Source: a virus (taxonomy: Duplodnaviria > Heunggongvirae > Uroviricota > Caudoviricetes). From it: a DNA stretch of 18,555 nucleotides. Where the stretch lies: positions 1-18,555 of the IMG/VR virus record IMGVR_UViG_2630968500_000002, one strand, 5' to 3'. The notes under the pieces were generated by a model, which did not search any database, had not been told where the DNA came from, and saw nothing but the letters and a program-made list of their open reading frames with translations. The number at the start of each line of letters is the position of its first letter. Within the stretch, counting starts at the first letter, position 1. Below are positions 1 to 16,063 of this stretch, piece after piece. Position numbers and translations under genes: made by a program.

Positions 1-36
1 GACGTAAACCAAACCTTAATCGGGAGATACTGCACT

Positions 37-279
37 ATGAGCACTGATATTTCAATTCGTGTACCAAAAGAGATGGCTACGCCTGCAGAGTTCGCGGAAT
101 GGGAAGGTATCTCCCGCGGCTCCGTGTATCAAAAAATTCACCATGGTCAGCTTGCTAAATACATGGTCAAGAAAGAAAAAAACAAAGGCCGCGTAAGTCT
201 GCGTTATTTAATGTACAAAACCGATCAGGTCCGTGAATCCCTCGGTCATTCCAACTTCCGCGTCATTGTTGGTAAGTGA
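37..279 (+). CDS. Cox/Apl-like small DNA-binding regulator or excisionase (putative), first gene of the early lytic operon
   Basis: 80 aa ORF with GGGAGA RBS about 9 nt upstream of ATG; basic protein with a helix-turn-helix-like segment (AEFAEWEGISRGSVYQKI); lies immediately upstream of a CII-like gene, as apl does in phage 186. Function inferred from position and size only. Confidence 0.45.
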   Translation: MSTDISIRVPKEMATPAEFAEWEGISRGSVYQKIHHGQLAKYMVKKEKNKGRVSLRYLMYKTDQVRESLGHSNFRVIVGK

Positions 280-311
280 GTTCAATTATGAGAACTTTCT
301 AAGGGGATAGC

Positions 312-821
312 ATGTTTGATTATAAGATTTCCAAACACCCGCATTTTGATGAAGCCTGTAGAGCTTTTGCACTTCGTCACAATATGGCGAAGCTGGCAGA
401 ACGTGCAGGAATGAATGTCCAGACTCTGCGAAACAAACTCAACCCAGATCAACCGCATCAGCTCAATGCGCCAGAAATCTGGCTGCTTACCGATCTGACT
501 GAAGATTCAACGCTGATAGATGGTTTTCTGGCACAGATTCACTGCCTGCCATGTGTACCGATTAATGAGGTAGCAAAAGAGAAACTGCCGCATTACGTCA
601 TGAGTGCAACCGCAGAGATCGGGCGTGTTGCTGCAGGTGCGGTATCTGGCGATGTAAAAACCAGTGCAGGTCGTCGTGATGCTATCAGCAGCATTAACTC
701 TGTAACACGACTGATGGCGCTGGCTGCTGTTTCACTGCAGGCCCGTTTACAGGCTAACCCTGCGATGGCGAGTGCAGTTGATACCGTGACTGGCCTCGGT
801 GCTTCATTCGGTTTGCTGTGA
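312..821 (+). CDS. cII: Phage regulatory protein CII (186 CII / CP76-like)
   Basis: 169 aa ORF, same length as 186 CII as I recall it; N-terminal region MFDYKISKHPHFDEACRAFALRHNMAKLAERAGMNVQTLRNKLNP resembles the 186 CII family HTH region from memory; positioned second in the early operon. Confidence 0.65.
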   Translation: MFDYKISKHPHFDEACRAFALRHNMAKLAERAGMNVQTLRNKLNPDQPHQLNAPEIWLLTDLTEDSTLIDGFLAQIHCLPCVPINEVAKEKLPHYVMSATAEIGRVAAGAVSGDVKTSAGRRDAISSINSVTRLMALAAVSLQARLQANPAMASAVDTVTGLGASFGLL

Positions 822-828
822 GGTGCTT

Positions 829-1029
829 ATGCTTACGAAAGAACCATCATTTGCATCGCTGCTGGTTAAACAAAGCCCGGCAATGCACTACGGTCACGGC
901 TGGATCATGGGTGAGGATGGTAAACGCTGGCATCCGTGCCGTTCACAAGATGAATTGCTGGCAGAACTATCTACGAAAAAACGGGGGAACAAATGGCTAT
1001 TGAAGGCGCTGCGGCGACTGTTCCATTAA
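829..1029 (+). CDS. Hypothetical early protein (66 aa)
   Basis: ATG at 829 preceded by GAGGTG RBS; the ORF-track start at 799 has no RBS. Compact early-operon context. Function unknown. Confidence 0.45.
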   Translation: MLTKEPSFASLLVKQSPAMHYGHGWIMGEDGKRWHPCRSQDELLAELSTKKRGNKWLLKALRRLFH

Positions 1030-1334
1030 GCCCCGGTGAACGCCTGAATGGACTTAATCATATTGCGGAGTTAAGGGCGAAAGTTTTTGGTCTTAATATT
1101 GAGTCAGAGCTTGAACGGTTTATTAAAGATATGCGTGATCCACGGGATATTAATAGCGAACAAAATAAACGGGCACTGGCTGCCATATTCTTTATGGCAA
1201 AAATTCCAGCTGAACGTCATAGCATCAGCATTAATGAGCTGACCACTGACGAAAAGCGGGAGTTGATTAAAGCAATGAATCATTTTCGTGCAGTGGTGAG
1301 CTTATTTCCCAGACGGCTAACCATGCCGAATTAA
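993..1334 (+). CDS. Hypothetical early protein (113 aa)
   Basis: ATG at 993 preceded by GGGGGAA RBS; overlaps the previous gene by 37 nt in a different frame; no alternative in-frame start downstream. Confidence 0.55.
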   Translation: MAIEGAAATVPLSPGERLNGLNHIAELRAKVFGLNIESELERFIKDMRDPRDINSEQNKRALAAIFFMAKIPAERHSISINELTTDEKRELIKAMNHFRAVVSLFPRRLTMPN

Positions 1335-1401
1335 CCAACTAATGAAATTAATGGCGTAAACCCGCCGGGCATCCCTTTATCTAAATTCAGGAGTATTGAT
1401 T

Positions 1402-1635
1402 ATGCGTAATATTGAAACCCTCACGACTAAAACCGGACCGGATGACGCAGGGCTAAATATTTTACTGACAGAGGCTCGTCTGGAAGAACGCCGGGCAAGG
1501 GCTGAAGCAATGGCTGCCCGCCTTGATAGTCTTGCGTGTCATATCACATCCCGCCAGCTAAACCACGTCGAAGCGGCAGAACTGCTGCGTGTGACCGCTG
1601 AAGCAATCCAGAACGAAGCGCAGGAGATCCACTAA
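1402..1635 (+). CDS. Small early protein, DUF2732-like (P2-family conserved hypothetical)
   Basis: AGGAG at 1388-1392 followed by ATG at 1402; the ORF-track start at 1396 is TTG. Stop TAA overlaps the next start (TAATG at 1633-1637). Family assignment is from memory and uncertain. Confidence 0.55.
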   Translation: MRNIETLTTKTGPDDAGLNILLTEARLEERRARAEAMAARLDSLACHITSRQLNHVEAAELLRVTAEAIQNEAQEIH

Positions 1636-1862
1636 TGGCTGATGCAATGGATCTCGTACAGCAGCGCGTTGAAGAAGAACGCCAGCGCCATATTCGTGCT
1701 GCCCGTGCCAAAACACCGGGCGTGTCTCGCGTGCTTTGCATTGAATGTGAAGTGCCAATTCCGCCAGCACGCCGCCGCGCCATTCCTGGAGTGCAGCTTT
1801 GCATTACCTGTCAGGAAATCGCAGAGCTGAAAGGCAAACATTACAACGGAGGTGCTGTATGA
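1635..1862 (+). CDS. TraR/DksA-family C4-type zinc-finger protein
   Basis: 75 aa with two CxxC pairs (CIECEV ... CITCQE) in the typical DksA/TraR spacing; start overlaps the upstream stop and the stop overlaps the dam start (ATGA), indicating translational coupling. Confidence 0.7.
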   Translation: MADAMDLVQQRVEEERQRHIRAARAKTPGVSRVLCIECEVPIPPARRRAIPGVQLCITCQEIAELKGKHYNGGAV

Positions 1863-2716
1863 GCACCATCCTGAAATGGGCGGGAAATAAAACCGCAATT
1901 ATGTCCGAACTGAAAAAACACCTTCCTGCTGGCCCGCGACTGGTTGAACCTTTCGCGGGTTCCTGTGCAGTGATGATGGAGACGGAGTACCCCAGCTATC
2001 TTGTTGCGGATATTAATCCTGATTTAATCAACCTCTATAAAAAGGTTGCTGCTGATTGTGAATCGTTTATATCTCGCGCCAGAGTTTTATTTGAGATCGC
2101 AAACAGGGAGGTGGCTTATTACAACATAAGGCAGGAGTTTAATTACTCAACTGAAATTACTGATTTCATGAAAGCGGTATATTTCCTGTATCTCAATCGT
2201 CACGGTTACCGTGGTTTATGTCGCTATAACAAGAGCGGGCATTTCAACATTCCCTACGGTAATTATAAAAATCCGTATTTCCCTGAAAAAGAAATTCGCG
2301 CATTTGCAGAAAAAGCCCAGCGGGCAACGTTTATCTGCGCCAGCTTTGATGAAACGCTGGCGATGTTGAAGGCGGGGGATGTGGTGTATTGCGATCCGCC
2401 GTATGACGGTACGTTTTCCGGTTATCACACTGACGGTTTCACTGAAGATGACCAGTATCACCTTGCATCCGTTCTTGAACATCGGTCATCAGAAGGACAT
2501 CCGGTCATTGTTTCTAACAGTGACACATCCCTGATCCGTTCGCTGTATCGCAATTTTACTCACCACTATATCAAGGTAAAACGCAGCATCGGTGTGGCAG
2601 CTGGCGAGGGTAAATCAGCAACAGAAATCATTGCTGTTTCCGGGCCGCGCTGCTGGGTGGGATTTGATTATTCGCGTGGCGTGGATAGTTCTGCCGTGTA
2701 CGGAGTACGTGCATGA
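1859..2716 (+). CDS. dam: DNA adenine methyltransferase (Dam-like, GATC-type N6-adenine MTase)
   Basis: N-terminus [15 protein letters not shown]....LVEPFAGS and a DPPY catalytic motif (VYCDPPYDG) are hallmarks of Dam-family MTases. ATG at 1859 with GGAGGTG RBS; the ORF-track start at 1799 is an upstream extension. 285 aa. Confidence 0.85.
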
Positions 2717-5127
2717 GTCATGCCGATATGAACAACTGCAGCGGCGTTAACGAGGTCGCCGCAGCATTCTCATGGAACAGCCCGAAAAAGGCTATTAACC
2801 CTTATCTGGACCCGGCGGAAGTTGCGCCGGTTTCTGCGCTTTCAAACCTGATCACTCTGTACGCTACCGATAACGAGCAGGAACAGCTGCGCCGCGAGGC
2901 ACTGAGTGATCAGGTCTGGGAGCGTTATTTCTTTAATGAATCCCGTGATCCTGTCCAACGCGAAATGGAGCAGGATAAGCTTATTAGCCGGGCAAAGCTG
3001 GCGCATGAGCAGCAGCGTTTTAATCCAGACATGGTCATTCTGGCGGACGTTAACGCCCAGCCTTCCCATATCAGCAAGCCGCTGATGCAACGTATTGAAT
3101 ACTTCAGCAGACTGGGCAGGCCAAAGGCTTATTCCCGCTATTTGCGTAAGACGATTAAGCCATGTCTGGAACGGCTGGAGCATGTACGCGACAGTCAGCT
3201 ATCCACTTCTTTTCGCTTTATGGCAAGCCATGAAGGGCTGGACGGCCTGCTGATTCTGCCTGAAATGAGTCAGGATCAGGTAAAACGCCTGTCCACCCTG
3301 GTAGCTGCGCATATGAGCATGTGCCTTGATGCCGCTTGTGGCGATTTGTATGCCACCGATGATGTTAAGCCAGAAGAAATCCGCAAGACATGGGAAAAGG
3401 TAGCAGCGGAAACCCTGCGACTGGATGTCATACCGCCTGCGTTTGAGCAACTTCGTCGGAAAAGAAACCGCCGCAAACCCGTGCCCTATGAACTCATTCC
3501 GGGTTCGCTGGCGCGTATGTTGTGCGCCGACTGGTGGTATCGGAAATTATGGAAGATGCGTTGCGAATGGCGGGAAGAGCAGTTGCGTGCTGTCTGCCTG
3601 GTCAGCAAAAAAGCATCTCCCTATGTTAGCTATGAAGCCGTGATGCATAAACGTGAGCAGCGCCGCAAGTCACTGGAGTTTTTCCGTTCTCATGAACTGG
3701 TGAACGAAGACGGCGACACGCTGGACATGGAGGATGTGGTAAACGCCAGCAGCAGCAACCCTGCGCATCGCCGCAATGAGATGATGGCCTGTGTTAAAGG
3801 TCTGGAGCTTATCGCGGAAATGCGCGGTGACTGCGCCGTTTTCTACACCATCACCTGTCCGTCACGTTTCCATTCCACGCTAAATAACGGCAGGCCCAAC
3901 CCGACCTGGACAAATGCGACGGTAAGACAAAGCAGCGATTATCTGGTCGGCATGTTTGCTGCATTTCGTAAGGCTATGCATAAAGCCGGGTTGCGCTGGT
4001 ATGGCGTGCGGGTGGCTGAGCCTCATCATGACGGCACCGTTCACTGGCACCTATTGTGTTTCATGCGCAAAAAAGACCGCCGCGCCATCACTGCATTACT
4101 GCGTAAGTTTGCCATCCGTGAAGACCGCGAGGAGCTGGGCAATAACACGGAGCCACGCTTTAAGTCTGAGCCGATAAACCCGCGCAAAGGAACGCCGACA
4201 AGCTACATCGCGAAATACATCAGTAAGAACATTGACGGGCGTGGTCTGGCTGGCGAGATCAGTAAGGAAACGGGTAAATCCTTGCGTGATAACGCTGAAT
4301 ACGTTAATGCCTGGGCGTCTCTGCATCGTGTACAGCAATTCCGCTTCTTTGGTATTCCGGGACGTCAGGCTTACCGTGAACTTCGCTTGCTGGCTGGTCA
4401 GGTGGCAAGGCAACAGGGTGACAAAAAAGCAGGTGCGCCGGTACTGGATAACCCGCGTCTTGATGCCATTCTGGCTGCTGCTGATGCTGGTTGTTTTGCT
4501 ACCTACATCATGAAGCAGGGCGGCGTACTGGTTCCCCGTAAATATCACCTCATCAGAACCGCTTATGAAATCAACGAAGAGCCGACCGCCTATGGCGATC
4601 ACGGTATTCGTATTTATGGCATCTGGTCACCAATTGCAGAGGGCAAGATCTGCACTCATGCAGTGAAGTGGAAAATGGTTCGTAAAGCCGTTGACGTTCA
4701 GGAGGCGGCAGCCGACCAGGGCGCTTGCGCCCCTTGGACTCGTGGCAATAACTGTCCCCTTGCTGAAAATTTGAACCAACAAGGGAAAGACAAATCAGCT
4801 GATGGGGATACCAGGACGGACATTACCCGCATGGATGACAAGGAGTTGCACGATTACCTGCACAGTATGAGCAAAAAAGAGCGCCGGGAACTGGCTGCAA
4901 GGTTACGCCTGGTGAAACCGAAACGGCGTAAAGACTACAAACAGCGAATTACAGACCATCAGCGACAGCAGCTAGTCTATGAACTGAAGTCCAGAGGATT
5001 TAATGGCAGCGAGAAAGAGGTCGATTTACTCCTTCGCGGCGGCAGTATTCCGTCAGGAGCAGGCCTGCGTATCTTCTATCGGAACCAGCGTTTGCAGGAA
5101 GATGATAAGTGGCGAAACCTGTATTAA
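2713..5127 (+). CDS. A: Replication initiation endonuclease A (rolling-circle Rep, P2 gpA-like)
   Basis: 804 aa; HUH-like motif VHWHLLCF and a two-tyrosine active-site motif [10 protein letters not shown] typical of P2 gpA / phiX174 A-type rolling-circle initiators; start overlaps the dam stop (ATGA at 2713-2716). Confidence 0.85.
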
Positions 5128-5219
5128 TTACGCGGGTTAACAATTCGTGCTCTTAATAATACCAGGCATATCAGGCTAATGAACGTAAAAAAACGTTTTA
5201 CATCAGTAAGATTATTATA

Positions 5220-5239
5220 TACTGTAAATATAAACAGTG
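5220..5239 (+). promoter_or_regulatory. LexA operator (SOS box) upstream of the tum-like module
   Basis: TACTGTAAATATAAACAGTG read directly: CTGT, then an 8-nt AT-rich spacer, then ACAG. Matches the E. coli LexA box consensus TACTGT(AT)4ACAGTA; located about 42 nt upstream of the ATG at 5281. Confidence 0.7.
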
Positions 5240-5280
5240 GTTATGTATACAGTATTGCTTGTGGTGTCATAGGAGGAAAG

Positions 5281-5469
5281 ATGCAGGACTATTTTTTGGA
5301 GTCTTTGAAGCTCCAGCGCATTGATTTTTTTCTTAAGCTTGTAGCGGCTAGTGAGTGTAGTGATGAAGAGAAGGGGCTGGCTTTGCAGTGGGTTTCTGAA
5401 CTGACAGATGAACTCATGGCAAAAATCAGAACCCACGAATACAACCGCTCAATGGATGTCATCAGCTGA
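5281..5469 (+). CDS. Small protein (62 aa) cotranscribed with the DinI-like gene; possible N-terminal Tum antirepressor-like moiety
   Basis: ATG at 5281 preceded by AGGAGGAAAG RBS; the ORF-track start at 5179 would place the LexA box inside the coding region, so the downstream start is preferred. Acidic protein, no recognised domain. Confidence 0.5.
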   Translation: MQDYFLESLKLQRIDFFLKLVAASECSDEEKGLALQWVSELTDELMAKIRTHEYNRSMDVIS

Positions 5470-5479
5470 GGTGACCTTT

Positions 5480-5713
5480 ATGCGCATTGAAATAATGATC
5501 GATAAAGAGCAGAAGATTAGCCAGTCTACCCTGGACGCCCTTGAATCCGAGCTTTACCGCAATCTGCGCCCCCTGTATCCCAAAACGGTAATTCGCATCC
5601 GCAAAGGTAGCTCTAACGGTGTGGAACTGACCGGACTGCAACTGGACGAAGAAAGAAAACAAGTGATGAAGATTATGCAGAAGGTGTGGGAAGACGACAG
5701 CTGGCTGCATTAA
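5480..5713 (+). CDS. DinI-family protein (DNA-damage-inducible protein I-like; Tum C-terminal-domain-like)
   Basis: 77 aa starting MRIEIMIDK...LDALESEL...WEDDSWL, which aligns by eye with E. coli DinI (MRIEVTIAK...IDALAGEL...WESADDW); GAGGTGA RBS before ATG 5480; LexA box upstream of the two-gene unit. Confidence 0.8.
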   Translation: MRIEIMIDKEQKISQSTLDALESELYRNLRPLYPKTVIRIRKGSSNGVELTGLQLDEERKQVMKIMQKVWEDDSWLH

Positions 5714-5719
5714 GAAAAG

Positions 5720-5760
5720 TTGCTGGCGTCTGAACTTGGTTCTGGCGTCAGCAAGGTTGA
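5720..5760. terminator. Putative hairpin terminator between the convergent DinI-like and secreted-protein genes
   Basis: Inverted repeat TTGCTGGCGTC (5720-5730) / GGCGTCAGCAA (5744-5754), with an A-tract upstream on the + strand (equivalent to a T-tract on the - strand). Confidence 0.4.
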
Positions 5761-5872
5761 ACAACGAGTACAGTGAGGCGTTAGGTGTGGCGTTTATTTG
5801 ATGAGTGAACGCCCGTTCTGCGACAGGTTCGGAGATTAAGGTTGAAACTACGGGCAAAATACCATCTTTTTC

Positions 5873-6298
5873 CTACTTAATTGAGTCCAGTAACAAGTTA
5901 CAGTTACTCTCATTGTAGAGAGAACGAGCAATTAGTGTTACCTGCTTTCCATTCATTCCCGGCTTATCCCATAACACAGCTTCTTGCGACGCCACAAATT
6001 CAGCATAATCAATTATGCGTTGTTCGTGATCTGGTTCCTCATAGCCAAAGTATGAGAGCGCATCGTTGTAAGCGTGGTAAGCTGCTTTCTGTAATATCTT
6101 GATATCGGCTGTAGGTACTAGCTCCGTGTAGCTAGGATCTAATTGTGTGCTACTGCCATAGAATGCACATGAAAGGTAAGATATTGATTTCTGTTGAGCT
6201 TTAGTTCCTTTCTCATAGTTTTTAGCTGTTACCGCCTGAACTGGGACGCTAACAAAGCTTGTAACCAGAATTAAAATTAATACGTAAAAGCTTTTCAT
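5873..6298 (-). CDS. Secreted/periplasmic protein of unknown function (cargo/moron gene)
   Basis: 141 aa; N-terminal signal peptide MKSFYVLILILVTSFVSVPVQA with AxA-type cleavage context (VQA/VT); GAGGT RBS 5 nt upstream on the - strand. Low GC (21 G+C in the 60 nt at 6181-6240) against about 60% in the structural genes. Transcribed opposite to the flanking phage genes. Confidence 0.7.
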   Translation of the reverse strand: MKSFYVLILILVTSFVSVPVQAVTAKNYEKGTKAQQKSISYLSCAFYGSSTQLDPSYTELVPTADIKILQKAAYHAYNDALSYFGYEEPDHEQRIIDYAEFVASQEAVLWDKPGMNGKQVTLIARSLYNESNCNLLLDSIK

Positions 6299-6571
6299 TT
6301 TGACCTCAGCCGAAACGTTAGAGAGACTATCGAAATTTGTAAAACCCGTGGCGATTCAGTTTGAGATCCTCCCCCTTACATGATTTTTAATCAAATATAT
6401 GCTTTTGTAAGCATACCTGTTAACCGAATTATTTATTTTTAGAGATCTTCCGACATACTGATTATGCCCGCTGAGGAGTTCACCTTGCGTAAAGTCCGAT
6501 TCGCTTTACTCGTCTGTGCATGTCTATGCTGCATGAGATTGCATGATCGTTTGAGGATCGTTTTTGCTAAG

Positions 6572-6595
6572 GCCCCCCAGAACTGGCGGGCTTTT
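6572..6595 (+). terminator. Putative GC-rich hairpin plus T-tract (terminator-like) in the cos-proximal intergenic region
   Basis: GCCCCCCAG..CTGGCGGGC stem with one mismatch, followed by TTTT; could instead be part of the cos packaging region. Confidence 0.3.
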
Positions 6596-6640
6596 GCGTA
6601 GATCATGCTCCTGCATGAAAACCACTACATAAAGCGGGCA

Positions 6641-6659
6641 GGCGTGGCGGGGATACGAG
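6641..6659. other. Candidate cos (cohesive end) site of the P2/186-type phage genome
   Basis: GGCGTGGCGGGGATACGAG; the first 13 nt are identical to the 19-nt cohesive-end sequence of 186 as I recall it (GGCGTGGCGGGGAAAGCAT; P2 is GGCGAGGCGGGGAAAGCAC). Lies between the end of the early/accessory region and the portal gene, as expected for cos. Confidence 0.4.
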
Positions 6660-6738
6660 CGCGCGCAAACATGTTTACTTGCAATTAATGTAGATATATT
6701 CTGAAATTGATAACTTACACATGAAAGGAGACGTGAGA

Positions 6739-6930
6739 GTGGCAAAATATACACCGGGCCAGAAAGTAAAACATGCAACAGGACATGGTCCAATCATGGT
6801 AATTGATCACTACCAATCGGCTACAATGGCAGTTTGTACGTGGTTTATTGGTGCTAAGAACCAGCGCGGAGTTTTTCATGAAGATACTCTAGTTTTATTT
6901 GTTCCAAAAGCTGAGAGTGATGATGAATGA
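6739..6930 (+). CDS. DUF2158/YodC-like small protein (63 aa)
   Basis: AGGAG at 6726-6730 then GTG at 6739, which is better RBS spacing than the ORF-track ATG at 6721. Sequence AKYTPGQKVKHATGHGPIMVIDHY fits the YodC/DUF2158 pattern (GD.V.LKSGGP.MTV) as recalled. Stop overlaps the downstream gene. Confidence 0.55.
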   Translation: MAKYTPGQKVKHATGHGPIMVIDHYQSATMAVCTWFIGAKNQRGVFHEDTLVLFVPKAESDDE

Positions 6931-7189
6931 TTCTCTGATAAAAATAGTTGACTGGATGGTTAATACCACTCGTTCTAATGGTGTGTTGTATCAGTCCGAG
7001 GTTGTTGAATTTCTAATCAATGACTTTGGGGACGAGTTCATCAAAACTAATGAGAATGGTAATTACGCTATAAGCAGTACTGTGCTAGCAAATTTTAGAA
7101 AGGCTAGCAAAGACGATATAGTTTGGGATCGTGAACAGTTAGCTTGGCGTTTACGCAATGAAAGCGATTTACCCGGACGGATGCAGTAG
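6920..7189 (+). CDS. Hypothetical small protein (about 89 aa), translationally coupled to the DUF2158-like gene
   Basis: ATG ATG at 6920/6923 overlapping the upstream stop (GATGATGAATGA); no recognised domain; followed by a terminator hairpin. Confidence 0.55.
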   Translation: MMNDSLIKIVDWMVNTTRSNGVLYQSEVVEFLINDFGDEFIKTNENGNYAISSTVLANFRKASKDDIVWDREQLAWRLRNESDLPGRMQ

Positions 7190-7206
7190 AGATAATACAG
7201 ATAATA

Positions 7207-7247
7207 GTGAACAAGCTGATAATTTCAACTTGTTCACTTCTTTTTTA
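7207..7247. terminator. Putative bidirectional rho-independent terminator between the small-gene pair and portal gene Q
   Basis: Inverted repeat GTGAACAAG (7207-7215) / CTTGTTCAC (7229-7237), followed by TTCTTTTTT on the + strand; lies just downstream of the Q stop on the - strand. Confidence 0.6.
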
Positions 7248-8288
7248 TGACTGATTATTTTCTAAGCCATAATATTCAAATTTGACTACCTCTTCATCTA
7301 ACCATTCATTAATTTCGGCAATGCGTTTTTGTAAAGGCATCAGTTCATTCCGAACAAATACCCGGCTGGCTTTCTCCACATCCCCAAACCCCCCTACATT
7401 ATTAGGCATAATCCCCATCATCTGCGGCGGCACTCGGTGTGCTGCCATCATGTCGTCCCGGCTCACGTTCTTGATATTCAGAAACTCATCCTTCGCCGCG
7501 ACTTCTGACAACGGGATGATCTGAAGCCCGTCCTTTTTGCCGTTAGGCGAGTACATAAACAGATTGCGGAAGTTACCTGGTCCTTTGGCGCTTTTCATCG
7601 CATTGCGGAGGTTGTTCACATCCTCCTGGTTTTGCGCGGCATCGGTCATGTACATGATGAAGCCTGCATGACTGCCGTTAATGTAATACTTTCGACGGAA
7701 CAGCGTGGCGGACTCGTTGAGCAGGGCAGACGGAATTGCAGAAAGATAACCGGGCAGGCCGTAGATCTCCTGATTAATATCTGGTTCCATTAGATGAAAA
7801 ATGCTGCCTTTCGTGAACTGATACGGCTGGGTTGTCATACCGTATTGCACAAACCAGTAGGTATCCAGGTCTAACCCGCGTCGGGTGTATTTTGCCAGCG
7901 CAGGCTCAAGGGCGATAACTTCACCGAATCGGTTCGTGCGTTTCTCCAGGTAGGCGTTACCAAATACCAGATAGTCCTGCACAAAACGCGAAAAAGCCTG
8001 CTGGCTGAGCAGCGGATGAGGGATATAGGTACTGGTCAGAATGTTGCACTTTACTGCAATCGGGGAACTGTGATGCACGGCGGCGCGGAAGGTGCGCGCC
8101 AGTCCGTCAAAGCTGACGGGCGGCTCATACCAACGGTCCATCTGTACGCATTCCACATAGTCCAGCAGTTCACGGCGGTCCAGAACAGGAACGGGATCGC
8201 CGAAGCTGAATGCTTCGGCTGTAGTTTGACTTTTAAGCTGGATCTTTTTCGTCGCCGCAGCTCGGTTCTTCTTACTCTTTCCCATCAA
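7245..8288 (-). CDS. Q: Portal (capsid portal) protein, P2 gpQ-like
   Basis: 347 aa (P2 Q is of similar size as recalled); divergent from O-N-M-L and directly downstream of the terminase ATPase gene on the same strand, the canonical P2 Q-P arrangement. Confidence 0.85.
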   Translation of the reverse strand: MMGKSKKNRAAATKKIQLKSQTTAEAFSFGDPVPVLDRRELLDYVECVQMDRWYEPPVSFDGLARTFRAAVHHSSPIAVKCNILTSTYIPHPLLSQQAFSRFVQDYLVFGNAYLEKRTNRFGEVIALEPALAKYTRRGLDLDTYWFVQYGMTTQPYQFTKGSIFHLMEPDINQEIYGLPGYLSAIPSALLNESATLFRRKYYINGSHAGFIMYMTDAAQNQEDVNNLRNAMKSAKGPGNFRNLFMYSPNGKKDGLQIIPLSEVAAKDEFLNIKNVSRDDMMAAHRVPPQMMGIMPNNVGGFGDVEKASRVFVRNELMPLQKRIAEINEWLDEEVVKFEYYGLENNQS

Positions 8289-10051
8289 AAAATCTCCACA
8301 ATATTGCTGGTATTGGCGGATTCGCCCTGCAGCGGTTCGTTAAACAGTGCGTGCATCGTTGCCCATGCCAGATCGGCGTGGCTGGCTTCTTCGCTGCGGC
8401 TGGCTTCATAGGTCGGGCGGTTGCCACTGGCGGTGGTGGCGCGACGGATTGCCATAAATGACTGCGCAATGTCGGTATGTCCGGCGTCAAACTCCAGACG
8501 GCGGTGGCTGATAATGTCGTAGGCCTTGAGTACCAGGGCGTTTTTAACGTTGGGGTTGTAGACAAACTCCCGGACGGCAGGAAAGAACGCTTTCACGTTC
8601 TCGTAAACCCCGTGACCAACGCCGGTTGAGTCGATGCCGATGTAGGTCACGTTGTACTGCTCGGTCAGTTTTTTGATTGCGTCAGCCTGGGCGCGGAAGT
8701 CCATCCCGCGCCACTGGTGACGCTCAAGAATGCGGAACTTACCGCCCGGCACGGCTGGCGGTGCCACCACCACGCATCCGGCGCTGTCGCCGTTCTGCGT
8801 ACCTTTTGCCGGGTCATAACCGATCCACACTTCGCGCCAGCCAAACGGGCGCAGGGCCAGAGCATGAAAGTCGGTCCAGACTTCCCAACTGTCCACCATG
8901 CACGCCTGCAGCTCGCTGAGCGGAAACACGGACGCGAGATCGTCCACAAACTCGCACATCAGTAGGTTCTGGTATTCGTCCGGGCTGTACTCCATGCGCA
9001 ACTGGTCGAGGTCGAACAGGTTACAGCCGCCGCGCACCGCATCTTCCACAGTGACTATCTGGCGGTACTGCCCGTCTGCGCACAGCAGGCCGGGGGCCAG
9101 ATTGCTGTGGGACAGGTCGATGTCCACCTTATCGGCTTTGTTGCGCCCACGATTGAACAGCGCACCGGACCAGAACGGATAAGCACTGTGAGTCAGGCTG
9201 GATGGCGTGGAAAAATAGGTTTGTCGCCATTTTTTGTGAATAGCCATACCGGAAGCCACTTTGCGCAGCTCCTGGAATTTCGGTATCCAGAAATATTCAT
9301 CCAGATACAGGTTGCCGTGATAACTCTGGGCAGTGCGGGCATTGGTGCCGAGGAAGTAAAGCGTGGCCCCGTTAGGAAGCACCATCGGATCGCCTTTCAA
9401 CTCCACCTCCACTTCTTTGGCGAAGTCGATGATGTACTGCTTAAAGACGTGGGCCTGTGCCTTGCTGGCGGAAAGGAAAATCTGGTTACGTCCGGTAAGC
9501 AGGGCGTCAATCAGGGCTTCACGGGCAAAGTAAAAGGTCGCGCCGATCTGGCGTGACTTCAGCAGGTTGCGGATGCGGTTGGCTTTTCCGGCTTCCCACC
9601 AGTGGCGCTGGTAGTTGAACATGGAGGAATGGAAGATTTCTTCCAGCTTCTCAATCTGCTCATCGGTGAAAACATTCTTTTCCGGCTGACGGCGCGGGCC
9701 TTTGTTGCGGTTGGCGACGTTAGGGTTTAAGTCGGCTTCGTTGCCGCCATTGTTAAACTTGCCGATCCGCGCGTGGCGCTCCGACTGGCGCGCCAGCAGG
9801 TCAATCTCTTTGAAATCTTTCCCTTCTTTGTGCTCCTTCATAATGAGCTGGCAGTAGCGTGCGGCGGTGGTGAGCTGCATCTGATCCAGCGGCCCATAGT
9901 CACCCCACTTGTCGCGTTTTTTCCAGCTGTGAACAGTTGCAACTTTCTCGCCCAGCATTTCAGCAATGCGGGCGACGCGGTATCCCTGAAAGTACAGCAG
10001 CATGGCCTGCCGACGGGGATCGAGATCTGCGGGTGTCAGTGTGGTGTTCAT
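8285..10051 (-). CDS. P: Terminase ATPase (large) subunit, P2 gpP-like
   Basis: 588 aa, matching P2 gpP size as recalled; its stop overlaps the Q start; divergent from the scaffold gene O across a late-promoter region. Confidence 0.9.
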   Translation of the reverse strand: MNTTLTPADLDPRRQAMLLYFQGYRVARIAEMLGEKVATVHSWKKRDKWGDYGPLDQMQLTTAARYCQLIMKEHKEGKDFKEIDLLARQSERHARIGKFNNGGNEADLNPNVANRNKGPRRQPEKNVFTDEQIEKLEEIFHSSMFNYQRHWWEAGKANRIRNLLKSRQIGATFYFAREALIDALLTGRNQIFLSASKAQAHVFKQYIIDFAKEVEVELKGDPMVLPNGATLYFLGTNARTAQSYHGNLYLDEYFWIPKFQELRKVASGMAIHKKWRQTYFSTPSSLTHSAYPFWSGALFNRGRNKADKVDIDLSHSNLAPGLLCADGQYRQIVTVEDAVRGGCNLFDLDQLRMEYSPDEYQNLLMCEFVDDLASVFPLSELQACMVDSWEVWTDFHALALRPFGWREVWIGYDPAKGTQNGDSAGCVVVAPPAVPGGKFRILERHQWRGMDFRAQADAIKKLTEQYNVTYIGIDSTGVGHGVYENVKAFFPAVREFVYNPNVKNALVLKAYDIISHRRLEFDAGHTDIAQSFMAIRRATTASGNRPTYEASRSEEASHADLAWATMHALFNEPLQGESANTSNIVEIF

Positions 10052-10087
10052 GGCACAAACCTACAGCCTTGAATGAAGGCTTTCCCC

Positions 10088-10105
10088 GCCTGCGGTTTGT
10101 GTGGT
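10088..10105. promoter_or_regulatory. Candidate late-promoter activator site (TGT-N12-ACA) in the divergent P/O control region
   Basis: TGTGTGGTTGTCGGTACA read directly. P2/186 late promoters activated by Ogr/B carry a TGT-N12-ACA dyad centred near -55; this site lies about 95 nt upstream of the O start codon. Confidence 0.45.
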
Positions 10106-10193
10106 TGTCGGTACAAATACCGCGCATTGTTTCACTGCCCCCATCACCGCAACCATAAGGCTCCAGTAAGTTTTTTCTAACGGAGCACGGCTC

Positions 10194-11027
10194 ATGACAG
10201 TGAAAGCAAAGCGTTTTCGCATCGGGGTGGAAGGTGCCACCACCGACGGACGCGAAATCCAGCGTGAATGGCTGGAACAGATGGCAGCCAGCTACAACCC
10301 GGCGGTGTATACCGCGCTGATTAACCTTGAGCACATCAAGTCTTATCTGCCGGACAGCACCTTTAACCGCTACGGCAAGGTGACGGCGCTGTTTGCTGAA
10401 GAAATCACGGAAGGTCCGCTGGCAGGCAAGATGGCGCTGTATGCCGACGTTGAGCCAACGGAATCCCTGGTGGAACTGGTGAAAAAAGGCCAGAAATTAT
10501 TCACCTCTATGGAAGTCAGCCCGAAGTTTGCTGATACGGGCAAAGCCTACCTGGTCGGCCTGGCTGCCACTGATGACCCTGCCAGTCTGGGCACTGAAAT
10601 GCTGACATTCAGCGCCAGTGCAGCCCATAACCCGCTGGCAAACCGCAAGCAGAATCCCGCCAATCTCTTTACCGCCGCAGAGGAAACGGTGATCGAACTG
10701 GAAGAAATCCAGGAGGACAAGCCGTCCCTGTTTGCCCGCGTCACGGCACTGTTCACCAAAAAAGAGCAGTCCGACGATGCCCGGTTCTCTGATGTGCATA
10801 AGGCCGTGGAGCTGGTCGCCACTGAGCAGCAAAACCTGAGCGCACGCACCGAAAAATCCCTGTCTGAGCAGGAAGAACGTCTGTCTGAGCTGGAGACTGC
10901 CCTGCAGGCACAGCAGACCGCCTTTAACGAACTGGTGAATAAGCTGAGTCATGAAGACAGCCGCCAGGACTACCGCCAGCGTGCAACAGGCGGTAACGCC
11001 CCCGCTGACACTCTGACCAATTGCTGA
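10194..11027 (+). CDS. O: Capsid scaffolding protein, P2 gpO-like
   Basis: 277 aa; CGGAG RBS 8 nt upstream of the ATG; first gene of the rightward late operon preceding the major capsid gene; acidic coiled-coil-rich C-terminal half typical of scaffold proteins. Confidence 0.85.
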   Translation: MTVKAKRFRIGVEGATTDGREIQREWLEQMAASYNPAVYTALINLEHIKSYLPDSTFNRYGKVTALFAEEITEGPLAGKMALYADVEPTESLVELVKKGQKLFTSMEVSPKFADTGKAYLVGLAATDDPASLGTEMLTFSASAAHNPLANRKQNPANLFTAAEETVIELEEIQEDKPSLFARVTALFTKKEQSDDARFSDVHKAVELVATEQQNLSARTEKSLSEQEERLSELETALQAQQTAFNELVNKLSHEDSRQDYRQRATGGNAPADTLTNC

Positions 11028-11043
11028 TGGAGCACAAAACCCG

Positions 11044-12102
11044 ATGAAGAAGAATACCCGCTTTGCTTTTAACGCTTACCTGCAGCAGCTGGCGCGTCTG
11101 AACGGTGTGGCCGTTGAAGAACTGTCCAGCAAGTTCACTGTAGAGCCGTCTGTGCAGCAGACGCTGGAAGATCAGATCCAGCAGTCCGCCGCATTCCTGA
11201 CGCTGATTAACGTCACGCCAGTGACTGAGCAGTCTGGTCAGTTGCTGGGGCTGGGTGTTGGCAGCACCATTGCCGGAACCACTGATACCACAGCTAAAGA
11301 GCGTGAGCCTGTCGATCCGACGCTGATGGTCGATGTGGAATATAAATGCGAGCAGACTAACTTTGACACGGTGCTGACCTACGCGAAGCTGGACCTGTGG
11401 GCGAAGTTTCAGGATTTCCAGGTGCGTATCCGTGACGCCATCGTGAAACGTCAGGCACTGGACCGCATCATGATCGGCTTTAACGGCGTGAAGCGTGCGA
11501 AAACCTCCAACCGTAGCGAAAACCCGCTGCTGCAGGATGTGAACAAAGGCTGGCTGCAGAAAATCCGTGAAGATGCACCGGATCACGTCATGGGCAGCAC
11601 CACCACGGGCGGTGAAACCACACCGGGTGCGGTGAAAGTCGGTAAAGGTGGCGAATATGCCAACCTGGACGCAGTGGTGATGGATGCCGTCAATGAGCTT
11701 ATCGACGTGGTCTACCAGGACGATGACGATCTGGTGGTGATTTGCGGTCGTGAACTGCTGTCTGACAAGTATTTCCCGCTGGTCAACAAAGAGCAGGAAA
11801 ACAGTGAAAAACTGGCTGCCGATATGATCATCAGCCAGAAACGCATGGGTGGCCTGCAGGCCGTGCGTGCGCCGTTCTTCCCGCCGAATGCGCTGCTGAT
11901 CACCCGTCTGGATAACCTGTCCATCTACTGGCAGGAAGACACCCGCCGCCGTTCAGTTATCGACAACCCGAAACGTGACCGGATTGAAAACTTTGAATCC
12001 GTTAACGAAGCCTATGTGGTTGAGGACTACCGCTGCGCCGCACTGGTGGAAAACATCCAGATTGGTGACTTCAGCGCCGCCGCAGCAGAAACCGGAGCGT
12101 AA
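11044..12102 (+). CDS. N: Major capsid protein, P2 gpN-like
   Basis: 352 aa, immediately downstream of the scaffold gene; size and position match P2 N. Confidence 0.9.
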   Translation: MKKNTRFAFNAYLQQLARLNGVAVEELSSKFTVEPSVQQTLEDQIQQSAAFLTLINVTPVTEQSGQLLGLGVGSTIAGTTDTTAKEREPVDPTLMVDVEYKCEQTNFDTVLTYAKLDLWAKFQDFQVRIRDAIVKRQALDRIMIGFNGVKRAKTSNRSENPLLQDVNKGWLQKIREDAPDHVMGSTTTGGETTPGAVKVGKGGEYANLDAVVMDAVNELIDVVYQDDDDLVVICGRELLSDKYFPLVNKEQENSEKLAADMIISQKRMGGLQAVRAPFFPPNALLITRLDNLSIYWQEDTRRRSVIDNPKRDRIENFESVNEAYVVEDYRCAALVENIQIGDFSAAAAETGA

Positions 12103-12105
12103 TTC

Positions 12106-12756
12106 ATGAGCCTGAGTCCCGCACGGCAGCATCGCCTGCGCGTTCAGGCTGAACAGGCCGCTCGCGAGGGTGGCAGTGTTCGCCACGCGTCGGGCTATGA
12201 CCTGATGCTGCTGCAACTGGCGGAAGACCGCCGCCGTCTCAAGGGCGTTCAGTCCACGGTCAAAAAAGCGGAAATCAAGGTGGAGCTGCTGCCGAAGTAC
12301 GCCGCCTGGGCGGAGGGCGTCCTGGCTGCCGGAGGCGCTCAACAGGATGACGTGCTGATGTACGTGATGCTGTGGCGCATTGATGCCGGAGATTATGCCG
12401 GGGCGCTGGAGATCGGGCGTCATGCCCTGCGTCATGGCTGGGTGATGCCGCTGGGTAACCGCAACGTGCAGACCGTGCTGGCAGAGGAAATGGCAGATGC
12501 AGCGCAGAGCGCAATGCTTGCCGCCACCGACTTTGATGCCGATCTGTTACTGCAGACGCTGGAGCTGACAGACGGTCTGGATATGCCGGACCAGTCACGG
12601 GCGCGTCTGCATAAAGCGATTGGCGCTGTCCTGAGTGAAAGCAATCCGGCTTCCGCCCTTAATCATCTCAACCATGCGTTACAGCTCGATCCCCGCTGTG
12701 GCGTGAAAAAAGACAAACAGCAGCTGGAGCGCAGACTGCGCAATGACAGCCGCTGA
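12106..12756 (+). CDS. M: Terminase endonuclease (small) subunit, P2 gpM-like
   Basis: 216 aa following N by 3 nt with a GGAG RBS; position matches P2 M. Confidence 0.8.
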   Translation: MSLSPARQHRLRVQAEQAAREGGSVRHASGYDLMLLQLAEDRRRLKGVQSTVKKAEIKVELLPKYAAWAEGVLAAGGAQQDDVLMYVMLWRIDAGDYAGALEIGRHALRHGWVMPLGNRNVQTVLAEEMADAAQSAMLAATDFDADLLLQTLELTDGLDMPDQSRARLHKAIGAVLSESNPASALNHLNHALQLDPRCGVKKDKQQLERRLRNDSR

Positions 12757-12851
12757 CAGAACGTGCCCCCGCGCACGGGCGGCACGGGGTGGCGAAAGGC
12801 ACTGCCACATCAAAATCCCGTCCACCGCCCTCTATTTCAGGAGAAAGCAGC

Positions 12852-13316
12852 ATGAAGTTTGTTGCGCCAGAACAGGCACCGGAACAGGCGGAAATCATCA
12901 GAAATACGCCGTTCTGGCCTGATGTGGACCTGTCGGAGTTTCGCTGTGTCATGCGCACTGACGGCACGGTGACGCAGCCGCGTTTAAAGCAGGTTGCCCT
13001 GTCGGCAATTTCGGAGGTCAACGCAGAGCTGTATGAGTTTCGCAGACGTCAGCAGATGCTGGGATATGCCTCGCTGGCAGAGGTTCCGGCGGAACAGCTG
13101 GACGGCAAAAGTGAGCGCATTCATCACTATTTCAACGCGGTTTACTGCTGGGCACGCGCCATGCTCAACGAGCGTTATCAGGACTATGACGCCACGGCAT
13201 CCGGTGTGAAGCGGGGCGAGGAACTGGCGGAAGCAAGCGGTGATTTGTGGCGTGACGCCCGCTGGGCCATCAGCCGGGTGCAGGATGCGCCGCACTGCAC
13301 AGTGGAGCTTATCTGA
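12852..13316 (+). CDS. L: Head completion/stabilisation protein, P2 gpL-like
   Basis: ATG at 12852 with AGGAGAAAG RBS; the ORF-track start at 12789 is an upstream extension. About 155 aa; stop overlaps the X start (TGATG). Confidence 0.8.
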   Translation: MKFVAPEQAPEQAEIIRNTPFWPDVDLSEFRCVMRTDGTVTQPRLKQVALSAISEVNAELYEFRRRQQMLGYASLAEVPAEQLDGKSERIHHYFNAVYCWARAMLNERYQDYDATASGVKRGEELAEASGDLWRDARWAISRVQDAPHCTVELI

Positions 13317-13519
13317 TGAAAGTGCGTGCGCATCAGTATGACACGGTGGACGCGCTTTGCTGGCGTCATTACGGGCGCACGCAGGGTGTCACGGAGCAGG
13401 TACTGAAGGCAAATCCGGGGCTTGCCGAATACGGCCCCTTTTTACCTCACGGGCTGCAGGTGGAGCTGCCGGACATTCCGACAACCACCACCGTGCAGAC
13501 CGTCCAGCTATGGGACTGA
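13316..13519 (+). CDS. X: Tail protein X, P2 gpX-like
   Basis: 67 aa, same size as P2 gpX as recalled; located between L and the lysis cassette. Confidence 0.8.
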   Translation: MKVRAHQYDTVDALCWRHYGRTQGVTEQVLKANPGLAEYGPFLPHGLQVELPDIPTTTTVQTVQLWD

Positions 13520-13522
13520 ATT

Positions 13523-13738
13523 ATGACGCTTGAGCGAATCAGCGCCTTTATCACGTATTGCATCGCCGTCGTGCTGGCCTGGCTGGGCGATTTGTCCATC
13601 AAGGATGCCTCAACGCTGGGCGGCCTGATGATTGGTGTACTGATGCTGGCTATCAACTGGTACTACAAACACAAAGCCTACCAGCTTCTGCGCGACGGGC
13701 AGATCTCGCGGGAGGACTATGAATCCATCAATCGTTAA
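13523..13738 (+). CDS. Holin (small two-TM, pinholin-like)
   Basis: 71 aa with two hydrophobic segments (ISAFITYCIAVVLAWLG and LGGLMIGVLMLAINWYY) and a charged C-terminus; immediately upstream of and overlapping a SAR endolysin gene. Confidence 0.7.
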   Translation: MTLERISAFITYCIAVVLAWLGDLSIKDASTLGGLMIGVLMLAINWYYKHKAYQLLRDGQISREDYESINR

Positions 13739-14231
13739 ACGCTGCCTTGTCGGGGCCGTGCTGGCTATTGCTGCCACGCTGCCGGGTTTTCAGCAGCTTC
13801 ACACCTCCGTGGAGGGGCTGAAACTGATTGCTGATTACGAAGGCTGTCGTCTGCAGCCGTATCAGTGCAGCGCGGGTGTCTGGACCGACGGCATTGGTAA
13901 TACGTCGGGCGTCATTCCCGGCAAAACCATTACGGAGCGACAGGCAGCAGAAGGGCTGATCTCCAACGTGCTGCGTGTGGAGCGGGCGCTGGAAAGGTGT
14001 GTGAAGCAACAGCCGCCGCAGAAGGTGTATGACGCTGCGGTGTCGTTTGCCTTCAACGTGGGAACGGGCAATGCCTGCAGTTCCACACTGGTGAAATTAC
14101 TCAATCAGCGGCGCTGGGCGGATGCGTGCCGACAGTTGCCGCGCTGGGTTTATGTGAAAGGTGTTTTTAATCAGGGGCTGGATAACCGCCGTGCGCGGGA
14201 GATGGCCTGGTGCTTACAGGGAGCAAACTGA
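13719..14231 (+). CDS. SAR endolysin (T4-lysozyme-like muramidase with N-terminal signal-anchor-release domain)
   Basis: N-terminal G/A-rich weakly hydrophobic segment CLVGAVLAIAATLPGF, then an E-x8-D-x5-T catalytic triad (EGLKLIADYEGCRLQ...WTDGIGNT), as in phage 21 R-type SAR lysozymes; GGGAGGA RBS; 170 aa. Confidence 0.85.
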   Translation: MNPSIVKRCLVGAVLAIAATLPGFQQLHTSVEGLKLIADYEGCRLQPYQCSAGVWTDGIGNTSGVIPGKTITERQAAEGLISNVLRVERALERCVKQQPPQKVYDAAVSFAFNVGTGNACSSTLVKLLNQRRWADACRQLPRWVYVKGVFNQGLDNRRAREMAWCLQGAN

Positions 14232-14232
14232 A

Positions 14233-14610
14233 ATGAAAAAGAAAGTAATCAGCGGGCTGTTTCTGATGTTATGGATGGCGCTGTTGATCGCAGCAATGGT
14301 GTATCCACAGGGGATTTTTCCGGTACTGGCAGCGTCCGGTGTCTGGGTAGCCTGTCTGCTGACATGGGCGGTAATTCCGGTAGCACTGGCTGCGTTAATT
14401 AAGAACGGCCCGCTCTGGCAGGAGTTGAGGGCATCTTTGCTAAAGACCATTACCCGAAAAGAAAACGTATTTATCAGCTGGGTGATGCGATTGCTGATTG
14501 TCGTAAGTTTTGCCTGGACGGGGTGGGCTATTACCCTGGTCTTTTATCTGCTGACCGTTATTGCCTTCTGGATGATCCGTAATCAGATTGCGCAACAGGT
14601 AGCAGCATGA
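14233..14610 (+). CDS. lysA: LysA-like membrane protein (lysis timing/holin accessory)
   Basis: 125 aa, multiple hydrophobic helices; follows the endolysin as lysA does in P2. Confidence 0.6.
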   Translation: MKKKVISGLFLMLWMALLIAAMVYPQGIFPVLAASGVWVACLLTWAVIPVALAALIKNGPLWQELRASLLKTITRKENVFISWVMRLLIVVSFAWTGWAITLVFYLLTVIAFWMIRNQIAQQVAA

Positions 14611-15035
14611 ACCGGTTGCTGCTGGTTGTGCTGGCGTTATTACTGGCGGCGCTGGGCTGGCAGACGTGGCGGCTGGCTGATGCCAGCCAGACCATCAGCA
14701 CGCAGGCAGACGAGCTTCGGAGCAAAAGCCAGGCACTGGCAAAGAGCAACAGCCAGCTTATCAGCCTGTCCATTCTGACTGAAACCAATAACCGGGAGCA
14801 GGCGCGGCTCTATGCCGAAGCAGAACAGACCAGTGTACTGCTGAGACAACGACAACACCGGATTGAGGAACTGAAACGTGAGAACGAGGATTTACGCCGC
14901 TGGGCTGATACTCCTGTGCCTGCTGACATTATCCGGCTGCGGGAACGCCCCACACTCACCGGAGGTGCAGCTTACCGTCAGTGGTTGTCCGCGAGTGACG
15001 CCGTGTCGGCTGGGGCAGGCAGCGCCGCGCACTAA
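14607..15035 (+). CDS. lysB: LysB-like inner-membrane spanin (i-spanin, Rz-like)
   Basis: 142 aa; N-terminal TM (LLLVVLALLLAALGW) and coiled-coil periplasmic domain; contains the embedded start of an o-spanin gene in the +1 frame. Confidence 0.8.
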   Translation: MNRLLLVVLALLLAALGWQTWRLADASQTISTQADELRSKSQALAKSNSQLISLSILTETNNREQARLYAEAEQTSVLLRQRQHRIEELKRENEDLRRWADTPVPADIIRLRERPTLTGGAAYRQWLSASDAVSAGAGSAAH

Positions 15036-15168
15036 CGGTGACCTGAACGCGTTGCTGGATGAAACGGAGGCCGCCTGGGCGGTCTGTGCAGACAAAGTGG
15101 ACATGATTATTGCGTGTCAGGAGCGAAACAGTGAACAAACCACAATCCCTGCGCCACGCCCTCAATAA
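14878..15168 (+). CDS. lysC: LysC-like outer-membrane lipoprotein spanin (o-spanin, Rz1-like)
   Basis: GTG start at 14878 with GAGGAA RBS; lipobox LTLSGC after a hydrophobic signal; Pro-rich C-terminus; starts inside lysB in another frame and extends past it. 96 aa. Confidence 0.75.
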   Translation: MRTRIYAAGLILLCLLTLSGCGNAPHSPEVQLTVSGCPRVTPCRLGQAAPRTNGDLNALLDETEAAWAVCADKVDMIIACQERNSEQTTIPAPRPQ

Positions 15169-15562
15169 AGCGGTGCCTTATGTCCGCAATAACCCGGACA
15201 AACTGCATCTGTTTGTGGATAACGGTTCGCTGGTTGCCACGGGGGCCAGCTCCATGTCATGGGAGTACCGCTATACCCTGAACGTGGTGATAGAGGATTT
15301 CAGCGGCGACCAGAATCTGCTGATGGCCCCGGTTTTACTGTGGCTTCGGGATAACCAGCCCGATGCCATCTATAACCCGGCGTTACGGGAAAAGCTATTC
15401 ACCTTTGAGGTGGATATTTTGCGCAACGATGTCTGTGATATCAGCCTTAACCTGCAACTGACGGAACGTGTGCTGGTCAGTACTGACGGCAGTGTGTCGA
15501 GCGTTGAAGCTGTAGCAGAACCCGATGAACCTGAAGAAATGTGGACGGTGAAACGTGGCTGA
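15131..15562 (+). CDS. R: Tail completion protein R, P2 gpR-like
   Basis: GTG at 15131 preceded by AGGAG (15119-15123); the ORF-track TTG start at 15110 is less likely. About 143 aa; position after the lysis genes matches P2. Confidence 0.75.
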   Translation: MNKPQSLRHALNKAVPYVRNNPDKLHLFVDNGSLVATGASSMSWEYRYTLNVVIEDFSGDQNLLMAPVLLWLRDNQPDAIYNPALREKLFTFEVDILRNDVCDISLNLQLTERVLVSTDGSVSSVEAVAEPDEPEEMWTVKRG

Positions 15563-16001: not shown

Positions 16002-16027
16002 GCCAACTAATTTGGTTAATCTAATTT

Positions 16028-16063
16028 ATTCGTTGTTAACGAATATCATATTTTTAATTTTTT
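16028..16063 (+). terminator. Putative rho-independent terminator at the end of the late operon after S
   Basis: Hairpin ATTCGTT-GTT-AACGAAT (16028-16044) followed by a T-rich tract (ATTTTTAATTTTTTA). Confidence 0.45.

Follow-up and report, generated by a model that had tools for sequence, protein, structure and literature searches.

A cos-proximal cargo gene of a P2-like Escherichia coli prophage encoding a putative exported protein of an unannotated family

The stretch of DNA analysed here (the window) comprises 18,555 nucleotides, positions 1 to 18,555 of the IMG/VR virus record IMGVR_UViG_2630968500_000002. It is a P2-like (186-type) prophage with 99.98% identity to a prophage of Escherichia coli G5. 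The open reading frame (ORF) at positions 5873–6298 of its minus strand, named here the target gene, is a real, conserved gene rather than a chance ORF, and it is accessory cargo in a cos-proximal slot equivalent to the one that holds old and tin in phage P2. It is already catalogued in the literature as an uncharacterised gene, and its family carries no annotation. The function that we favour, as a possibility rather than a probability, is superinfection exclusion by a periplasmic, disulfide-stapled binder that would block a component of the incoming phage. We regard the target gene as a reasonable single-gene candidate for periplasmic protection, and not yet as a discovery.

The target gene and its cassette beside cos

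The first-pass annotation of the window had placed at 5873–6298 a minus-strand ORF for a protein of 141 amino acids (aa), and the same coding sequence (CDS) is found in RefSeq (WP_047602246.1, “hypothetical protein”, E. coli G5). The ratio of non-synonymous to synonymous substitution rates (dN/dS), determined against orthologues with 75–89% identity, is 0.16–0.29, and the frame is therefore that of a gene under purifying selection. Among the E. coli-type IMG/VR loci checked, 28 of 28 have it unbroken, and so have 101 complete genomes. The target gene has a GC content of 40.1% (38.7% at third codon positions), compared with 51.6% for the window and 55–57% for the terminase and capsid genes, a composition unlike the phage backbone as is typical of a moron. 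The low GC content noted earlier is thus real, and so is the underlying count of 21 G+C in the 60 nucleotides at 6181–6240. The main features of the locus are the following:

5480..5713, plus strand: DinI-like gene (Pfam DinI, E 1.3e-22, and RefSeq), last gene of the early operon and convergent with the target gene
5785..6515: cargo cassette of 731 bp, absent from a related P2-like phage
5873..6298, minus strand: target gene CDS, with an ATG start, a 141-aa precursor and its stop codon at 5873–5875
6516..6668: conserved cos-proximal backbone, the right end of the linear phage genome
6641..6659, plus strand: cos cohesive-end sequence GGCGTGGCGGGGATACGAG, identical to P2 cosR at 14 of 19 positions and preceded by the same AAGCGGGC motif

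Backbone homology to phage 500465-1 and to Klebsiella phage ST15-OXA48phi14.1 is limited to 5000–5784 and 6516–6668. Since the homology of these relatives stops at 5784 and resumes at 6516, the segment between (5785–6515) is defined as a discrete 731-bp cassette. The two homology blocks lie 7 nucleotides apart in phage 500465-1, which has no cargo at this place, and different genes replace the target gene in ST15-OXA48phi14.1. Both phages carry TIR-domain genes within their gpA–portal region. The gene order in the window is gpA (2713–5127), target gene, cos and portal gene (7245–8288). This is the position of the gpA–gpQ hotspot, between gpA and gpQ beside cos, and its content varies among related phages. 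The gpA–gpQ region was described as an anti-phage hotspot whose 18,150 occurrences fall into 1,650 gene arrangements (Rousset et al. 2022, PMC9122126); its protective loci include the old–tin genes plus three of eight further cloned P2 systems (PMC9122126). A protein identified by us as the common allele of the target protein, WP_000834899, is listed at least 32 times in Table S5A of that work, always as “hypothetical”, with neighbours that vary and include HIRAN or DUF262/DUF1524 proteins (PMC9122126).

In P2, tin and old occupy the corresponding position on the same strand relative to cos, and their annotated transcript starts about 150 nucleotides inside cosR. The two phages thus share the slot between the replication gene region and cos, the strand, leftward reading from near cos, and a non-essential cargo that differs between related phages. 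The old/tin-equivalent accessory position proposed for the target gene is upheld by the common slot and strand and by the lack of the cassette in a relative. The products are different: Old (an ATPase/nuclease) and Tin are cytoplasmic, whereas the target protein carries export signals and is unrelated to them in sequence. The gene had also been described as divergently transcribed. This holds only with respect to the small plus-strand genes across cos; relative to the gpA/DinI early operon it is convergent.

Sequences that could direct expression of the target gene were found within the cassette:

6304..6307, minus strand: Shine-Dalgarno-like GAGG, 5 nucleotides before the ATG, kept in the Klebsiella versions
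6394..6423, minus strand: σ70-like promoter-like site (TTAACA, 18 nucleotides, TATATT), about 95 nucleotides upstream of the ATG and inside the cassette

The promoter-like site matches the consensus at 10 of 12 positions, a match that is not significant on its own as six such sites are found in the region for 5.0 expected. Related hexamers are present in two Klebsiella P2-like phages, TTAACA/TATGTT in one and CTAACA/TATGTT in the other. The spacer of the site holds a perfect 6+4+6 palindrome, ATGCTTACAAAAGCAT (6399–6414, minus strand), which is conserved in one of the two Klebsiella copies and could be an operator or due to chance. No intrinsic terminator was found downstream of the target gene in the window (downstream fold z-score −0.09), and no non-coding RNA family of Rfam was detected in the region; copies in other phages bear terminators made of a hairpin and a T-run. 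By analogy with P2 old/tin, and given the promoter-like match, the target gene is presumably expressed in the lysogen.

This organization resembles classical morons in the sense of Juhala and Hendrix (lambda bor and lom, phi80 cor). The target gene is likewise a compositionally distinct single-gene insertion between backbone genes, present or absent among relatives, with its own promoter-like site and a product whose predicted location is the envelope. It differs from them in that no terminator was found in this copy, and in the nature of its product: those of bor and cor are lipoproteins and Lom is an outer-membrane protein, while the target protein has neither lipobox nor barrel features.

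Other variable segments surround the locus. Two small low-GC plus-strand genes (6721–7189) lie between cos and the portal gene, one weakly DUF2158-like and the other coding for a DUF6953 protein. Among the 34 IMG/VR loci compared (L002–L035) this pair is shared by L007 alone, so that cargo also varies, independently, in a second sub-slot to the left of cos. Between gpA and the DinI-like gene is a small plus-strand gene at 5179–5469 (5281–5469 in RefSeq, WP_001154434) that matches the unannotated phrog_698 and is found with the hotspot in almost every relative, Klebsiella phages without a DinI gene among them. In E. coli G5 a frameshifted “anti-phage dCTP deaminase” pseudogene (L001 2783–4537) adjoins the integrase end of the prophage, just outside it.

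The predicted exported protein

The target protein starts with MKSFYVLILILVTSFVSVPVQA, followed by VT. This leader has one basic residue, an 18-residue uncharged hydrophobic run (S3–V20) and V-Q-A at positions −3 to −1 (VQA22/V23); it lacks a lipobox. A rule-based check of 22 family members, searching for a basic n-region, a hydrophobic h-region, small residues at −3 and −1, and a lipobox, identified the n-/h-/c-region layout in all of them. The Sec-type signal peptide announced by the first-pass annotation is thus borne out by its layout and shared family-wide. A lipobox match occurs only in P0005, a variant from Enterobacter roggenkampii with LSAC in its leader, a truncated C-terminus and no second conserved cysteine; this protein could be a lipoprotein, or else be in decay. 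The target protein is accordingly predicted to be exported by the Sec pathway and cut after A22, which would give a mature protein of 119 aa (13.4 kDa) with an isoelectric point of 5.1. The codons relevant to export and folding are:

6233..6298, minus strand: codons 1–22, Sec-type signal peptide MKSFYVLILILVTSFVSVPVQA, with a predicted signal peptidase I cut after A22
6167..6169, minus strand: codon of Cys44, in predicted helix 1, invariant in the family
5900..5902, minus strand: codon of Cys133, which opens the last predicted helix within the motif LYxESNCxLLL and is found in every full-length member

Full-length members have exactly two conserved cysteines in their mature part, spaced by 82–92 residues, and W110 is invariant across the family. 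The pair of cysteines reported earlier is therefore present and invariant, the second being residue 133 and not 134 as given at the time. Cys44 and Cys133 probably form a disulfide. Taken together, the signal layout and the invariant cysteines support the description of the product as an exported, probably disulfide-bonded protein, in which leader cleavage and the bond itself are what we infer.

The structure was modelled by AlphaFold2 from a 16-sequence family alignment. The model is confident (predicted local distance difference test (pLDDT) 89, predicted template modelling score 0.77), with low values solely in the signal peptide (pLDDT ~57–60 for residues 1–20, above 90 in the body). It is a five-helix bundle with helices at residues 25–50, 63–83, 91–110, 120–130 and 133–140. 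A search for structural relatives of this predicted fold retrieved none that was convincing.

The family, its genomic contexts and a decayed partner gene

The family of the target protein is small. A word-indexed search of 5.8 billion proteins retrieved just seven clusters, and an exhaustive profile search of 1.84 billion representatives gave 17 matches, about 14 of them relatives of 126–168 aa with 24–41% identity; three long multi-stretch matches of the latter search (P0019–P0021, 433–1585 aa) are probably spurious. Named members come from Enterobacterales only (E. coli, E. albertii, Salmonella, Klebsiella aerogenes, Citrobacter, Enterobacter, Hafnia, Lelliottia and Scandinavium). In a collection of 15 billion proteins all are called “hypothetical”, save one with an evidently spurious label. 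The target protein matches phrog_7437 over its full length (E 1.8e-97, residues 1–141 on profile positions 1–141), as do, more weakly, distant members of the family (E ~1e-14). PHROG 7437 is the sole named family that includes the target protein and is itself without annotation, so that it names the family without explaining it.

Other searches were negative. The target protein has no match in Pfam, NCBIfam or the defence models of PADLOC, 16 family members share no Pfam match at E values up to 10, and the family profile matches no sequence of the Protein Data Bank (PDB) at E values up to 10. Neither the target protein nor a distant member was detected by tblastn in 50,697 deposited phage genome records, and the identifiers WP_047602246, WP_000834899 and phrog_7437 were not found in literature full text. 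A housekeeping homology, which would have spoken against an accessory role, was not found. Among 5426 complete E. coli genomes, 101 (~2%) contain the target gene; they are of human, livestock and water origin. When 185,579 species, represented by one genome each, were subjected to two pattern scans, no family member turned up, and the gene is therefore never core.

Copies with at least 88% identity are always found in the same P2-like slot (31 IMG/VR loci). More distant homologues occur elsewhere. As a whole, the homologues occupy about 10 unrelated accessory positions, including two different P2-like slots, and their carriers are nearly all temperate phages. The contexts of the more distant copies are:

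Hafnia P2-like phage (L047): flanked by tail gene S and baseplate gene V, product with 76% identity to the target protein
another prophage: last gene, beyond GpJ-like and tail-spike genes and beside the trp operon, 75% identity
another phage: early (replication/recombination-type) region, 35–36% identity
K. aerogenes prophage: beside the integrase, in a row of small exported proteins, ~34% identity
IncFIB non-mobilizable plasmids of ~105–230 kb: ~30% identity for the one examined, which bears phage genes
resolvase-bearing element: ~30% identity
Citrobacter prophage: end of the prophage, 25% identity (BLASTP)
chromosomal islet: 1 kb from an orphan Imm35 gene, ~24% identity
84-kb Salmonella plasmid: among insertion sequence elements and a mer operon, ~22% identity

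The slot used in the Hafnia phage is also occupied in the window. It corresponds there to a low-GC island (33.7%) at 15900–17000, between the tail S-like gene and baseplate gene V, that is, the P2 orf30 slot. Its minus-strand ORF 16046–16861 codes for 271 aa with only a sub-threshold HNH_5 match and no PADLOC match. In the Hafnia phage the same slot holds the target homologue, a membrane protein partner (see below) and a NucS-like protein. The integrase of the K. aerogenes prophage adjoins an operon-like row of genes for four small signal-peptide proteins (L035 2577–4229, equivalent to L045 8001–9635). One of them, of 157 aa and considered as a paralogue, ends in a motif reminiscent of the target family (LYxxxNCDLL); this 18-residue C-terminal motif is all that it has in common with the family (hhalign probability 22%).

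An all-against-all comparison of the neighbours revealed a single recurrent partner, a facultative protein of 215 aa. With one recurrent partner at most, the gene is mobile by itself and travels chiefly on temperate phages. In the partner (215–219 aa), two transmembrane helices at the N-terminus precede a C-terminal domain of ~165 aa. Its gene lies directly upstream of the target homologue in Hafnia, where it is intact, and in K. aerogenes; the two partner proteins have 29% identity (E 3e-18). The partner family is small and unannotated, with members at L047 7333–7980, L035 1861–2520 and L054 6001–6660. DNA homology between the window and the Hafnia locus (blastn) spans the target gene and the 107 nucleotides upstream of its ATG, reaching into the 3′ end of the partner gene. 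The partner frame is interrupted by in-frame stops in the window:

6299..6405, minus strand: decayed 3′ end of the partner gene, 107 nucleotides, now within the 5′ untranslated region of the target gene

In E. coli and Klebsiella the cassette therefore retains the second gene of what was a two-gene module. On at least two occasions the target gene outlasted its partner, namely in P2-like phages and in a different type of prophage. Conversely, Enterobacter chromosomes carry the partner without the target gene, beside HEPN_LA2681 and SIR2-like genes in a defence-island-like setting, and elsewhere the partner gene is followed by a different downstream gene. The partner was rejected as an obligatory one, as most members of the target family have none and as it is also found alone or with another gene. 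Because the association is facultative, a toxin–immunity pairing of the two is unlikely.

The pseudogenised remnant upstream and the fact that no terminator was found could also mean that the target gene is itself a functionless leftover of this module, its first gene having decayed. We consider this highly improbable in view of the dN/dS of 0.16–0.29, of a frame intact in all 28 loci and 101 complete genomes, and of the repeated retention of the gene once its partner was lost.

The contexts also bear on a role as a lysogenic-conversion factor that alters the physiology or interactions of the host, for example a periplasmic stress or chaperone-type protein, a binder of ligands or metals, or a modulator of an envelope enzyme. 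In lambdoid phages, the prophage end beyond the tail-spike gene is the seat of genes for fitness and virulence (bor, lom, sodC). Family members use such classical moron positions, including that very one, and the gene is also on plasmids and in those 101 of 5426 E. coli genomes of human, livestock and water origin. Conserved polar and aromatic residues (Y41, Y98, E100, Q105, W110, Y128 and N132) could form a ligand site. The protein, however, resembles no known periplasmic chaperone, binding protein or virulence factor in sequence or fold, the gene is never core in the 185,579-species scans, and nothing ties it to a pathotype. Conversion of this kind appears unlikely to us.

Possible functions of the target protein

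In the mechanism that we favour, the cassette would act as a self-contained moron at the right end of the genome, read leftward from just inside cos like P2 old/tin. Its product would be exported by the Sec pathway, lose its signal peptide after Ala22, and fold in the periplasm as a 13-kDa compact bundle of five helices, in which the Cys44–Cys133 disulfide would link helix 1 to the C-terminal one. It would act alone as a stoichiometric binder. The likeliest ligand would be a component of the superinfecting phage that works in the periplasm, for example a cell-wall hydrolase associated with the tail or a part of the DNA ejection machinery, and competing phages would be excluded from the lysogen. 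Besides cleavage and the disulfide, what we infer here comprises lysogen expression, the mode of binding and the target bound.

Two known types of protein guide this proposal. Spackle (gp61.3) of phage T4 has a 22-residue leader and a 75-aa mature helical bundle with a Cys29–Cys81 disulfide; it inhibits the gp5 tail lysozyme and excludes superinfecting phage (PMC7677548). The prediction for the target protein is alike in the 22-residue leader, the small soluble periplasmic helical bundle, the one disulfide between N- and C-terminal helices, and the single gene that acts alone. Membership of the Spackle family was rejected: hhalign gave the family profile a probability of 3% against T4 Sp, with the leader alone aligned, and the fold is not the same either. 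The second type is that of the Tai4/Rap immunity proteins, inhibitors of type VI amidases, which have a cleaved leader, five to six helices, a mass of ~13 kDa and a conserved disulfide between N- and C-terminal helices, and which form dimers. The paired cysteines of the target protein are likewise in helix 1 and the last helix, but they are 89 residues apart instead of 60, and the gene is carried by phages rather than in type VI secretion system (T6SS) loci. No Pfam or PDB sequence match links the target family to Tai4/Rap, and the structural score is not above background.

Given a build like that of T4 Spackle and Tai4/Rap, a stoichiometric periplasmic inhibitor of an incoming component is favoured. 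Superinfection exclusion is ranked first in view of the location in a defence hotspot and of carriers that are, with few exceptions, temperate phages. Hotspot cargo of P4 satellites offers a related case, as six of eight randomly chosen unknown loci were protective (PMC13586616). Two observations weigh against exclusion. Machine learning rates just 15–32% of the unknown proteins of the P2 hotspot as antiviral (PMC13586616), and no signal of diversifying selection, that is, no excess of amino-acid changes, was found among close alleles. An exclusion or virulence role, as put forward by the first-pass annotation, goes beyond the present results: none from databases, structure or context assigns a function, and known defence models do not match. 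Its suggestion of receptor masking fares worse, since the masking of an outer-membrane receptor is a role ill suited to a soluble periplasmic protein that has neither a lipobox nor beta-barrel features.

The likeness to Tai4/Rap would also suit an orphan immunity protein acting against an interbacterial toxin that works in the periplasm (for example a bacteriocin, a type VI amidase or some other effector directed at the cell wall or membrane). The prophage would then shield its host from neighbouring bacteria, as Tai4/Rap neutralise Tae4 effectors. No effector or T6SS gene adjoins any of the ~12 copies of the target family examined. We rank this explanation second, level with lysogenic conversion and just as doubtful.

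The protein might instead serve the lytic cycle of its own phage from the periplasm, by timing lysis or by protecting from lysis from without. T4 Spackle and T4 RI are both periplasmic proteins with a role in lysis control, and in two phages the target homologue comes after a gene for a membrane protein with a periplasmic domain. Such a role is nevertheless improbable: the lysis cassette of the window is distant (13523–15035), the target gene is on the strand opposite to both the early and late operons, closely related and evidently functional phages lack it, and a copy resides on a non-phage plasmid.

Returning to superinfection exclusion, a bolder view is that temperate phages encode a novel family of soluble exclusion or immunity proteins acting in the periplasm, of which the target protein would be the first known: disulfide-stapled helical inhibitors that resemble Spackle and Tai4 in their action but are unrelated to both. 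They would neutralise a component that degrades the cell wall or crosses the envelope, and would have spread as a solo cassette over P2-like phages, other prophages, and plasmids with or without phage genes in Enterobacterales. We advance both the existence of such a family and this mode of action with some doubt, as rather unlikely in their full extent.

To our knowledge, the known phage-defence genes of the P2 and P4 hotspots act almost all in the cytoplasm, and soluble periplasmic blockers of phage entry are known to us essentially from one protein of a virulent phage, T4 Spackle. As a single gene, the target is an inexpensive candidate for a protection mechanism of a new kind, operating at the envelope against phages or bacterial toxins. 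If its product proved inactive, it would mark a class of hotspot cargo that is not devoted to defence, which would matter for studies that assume unknown hotspot genes to be antiviral.
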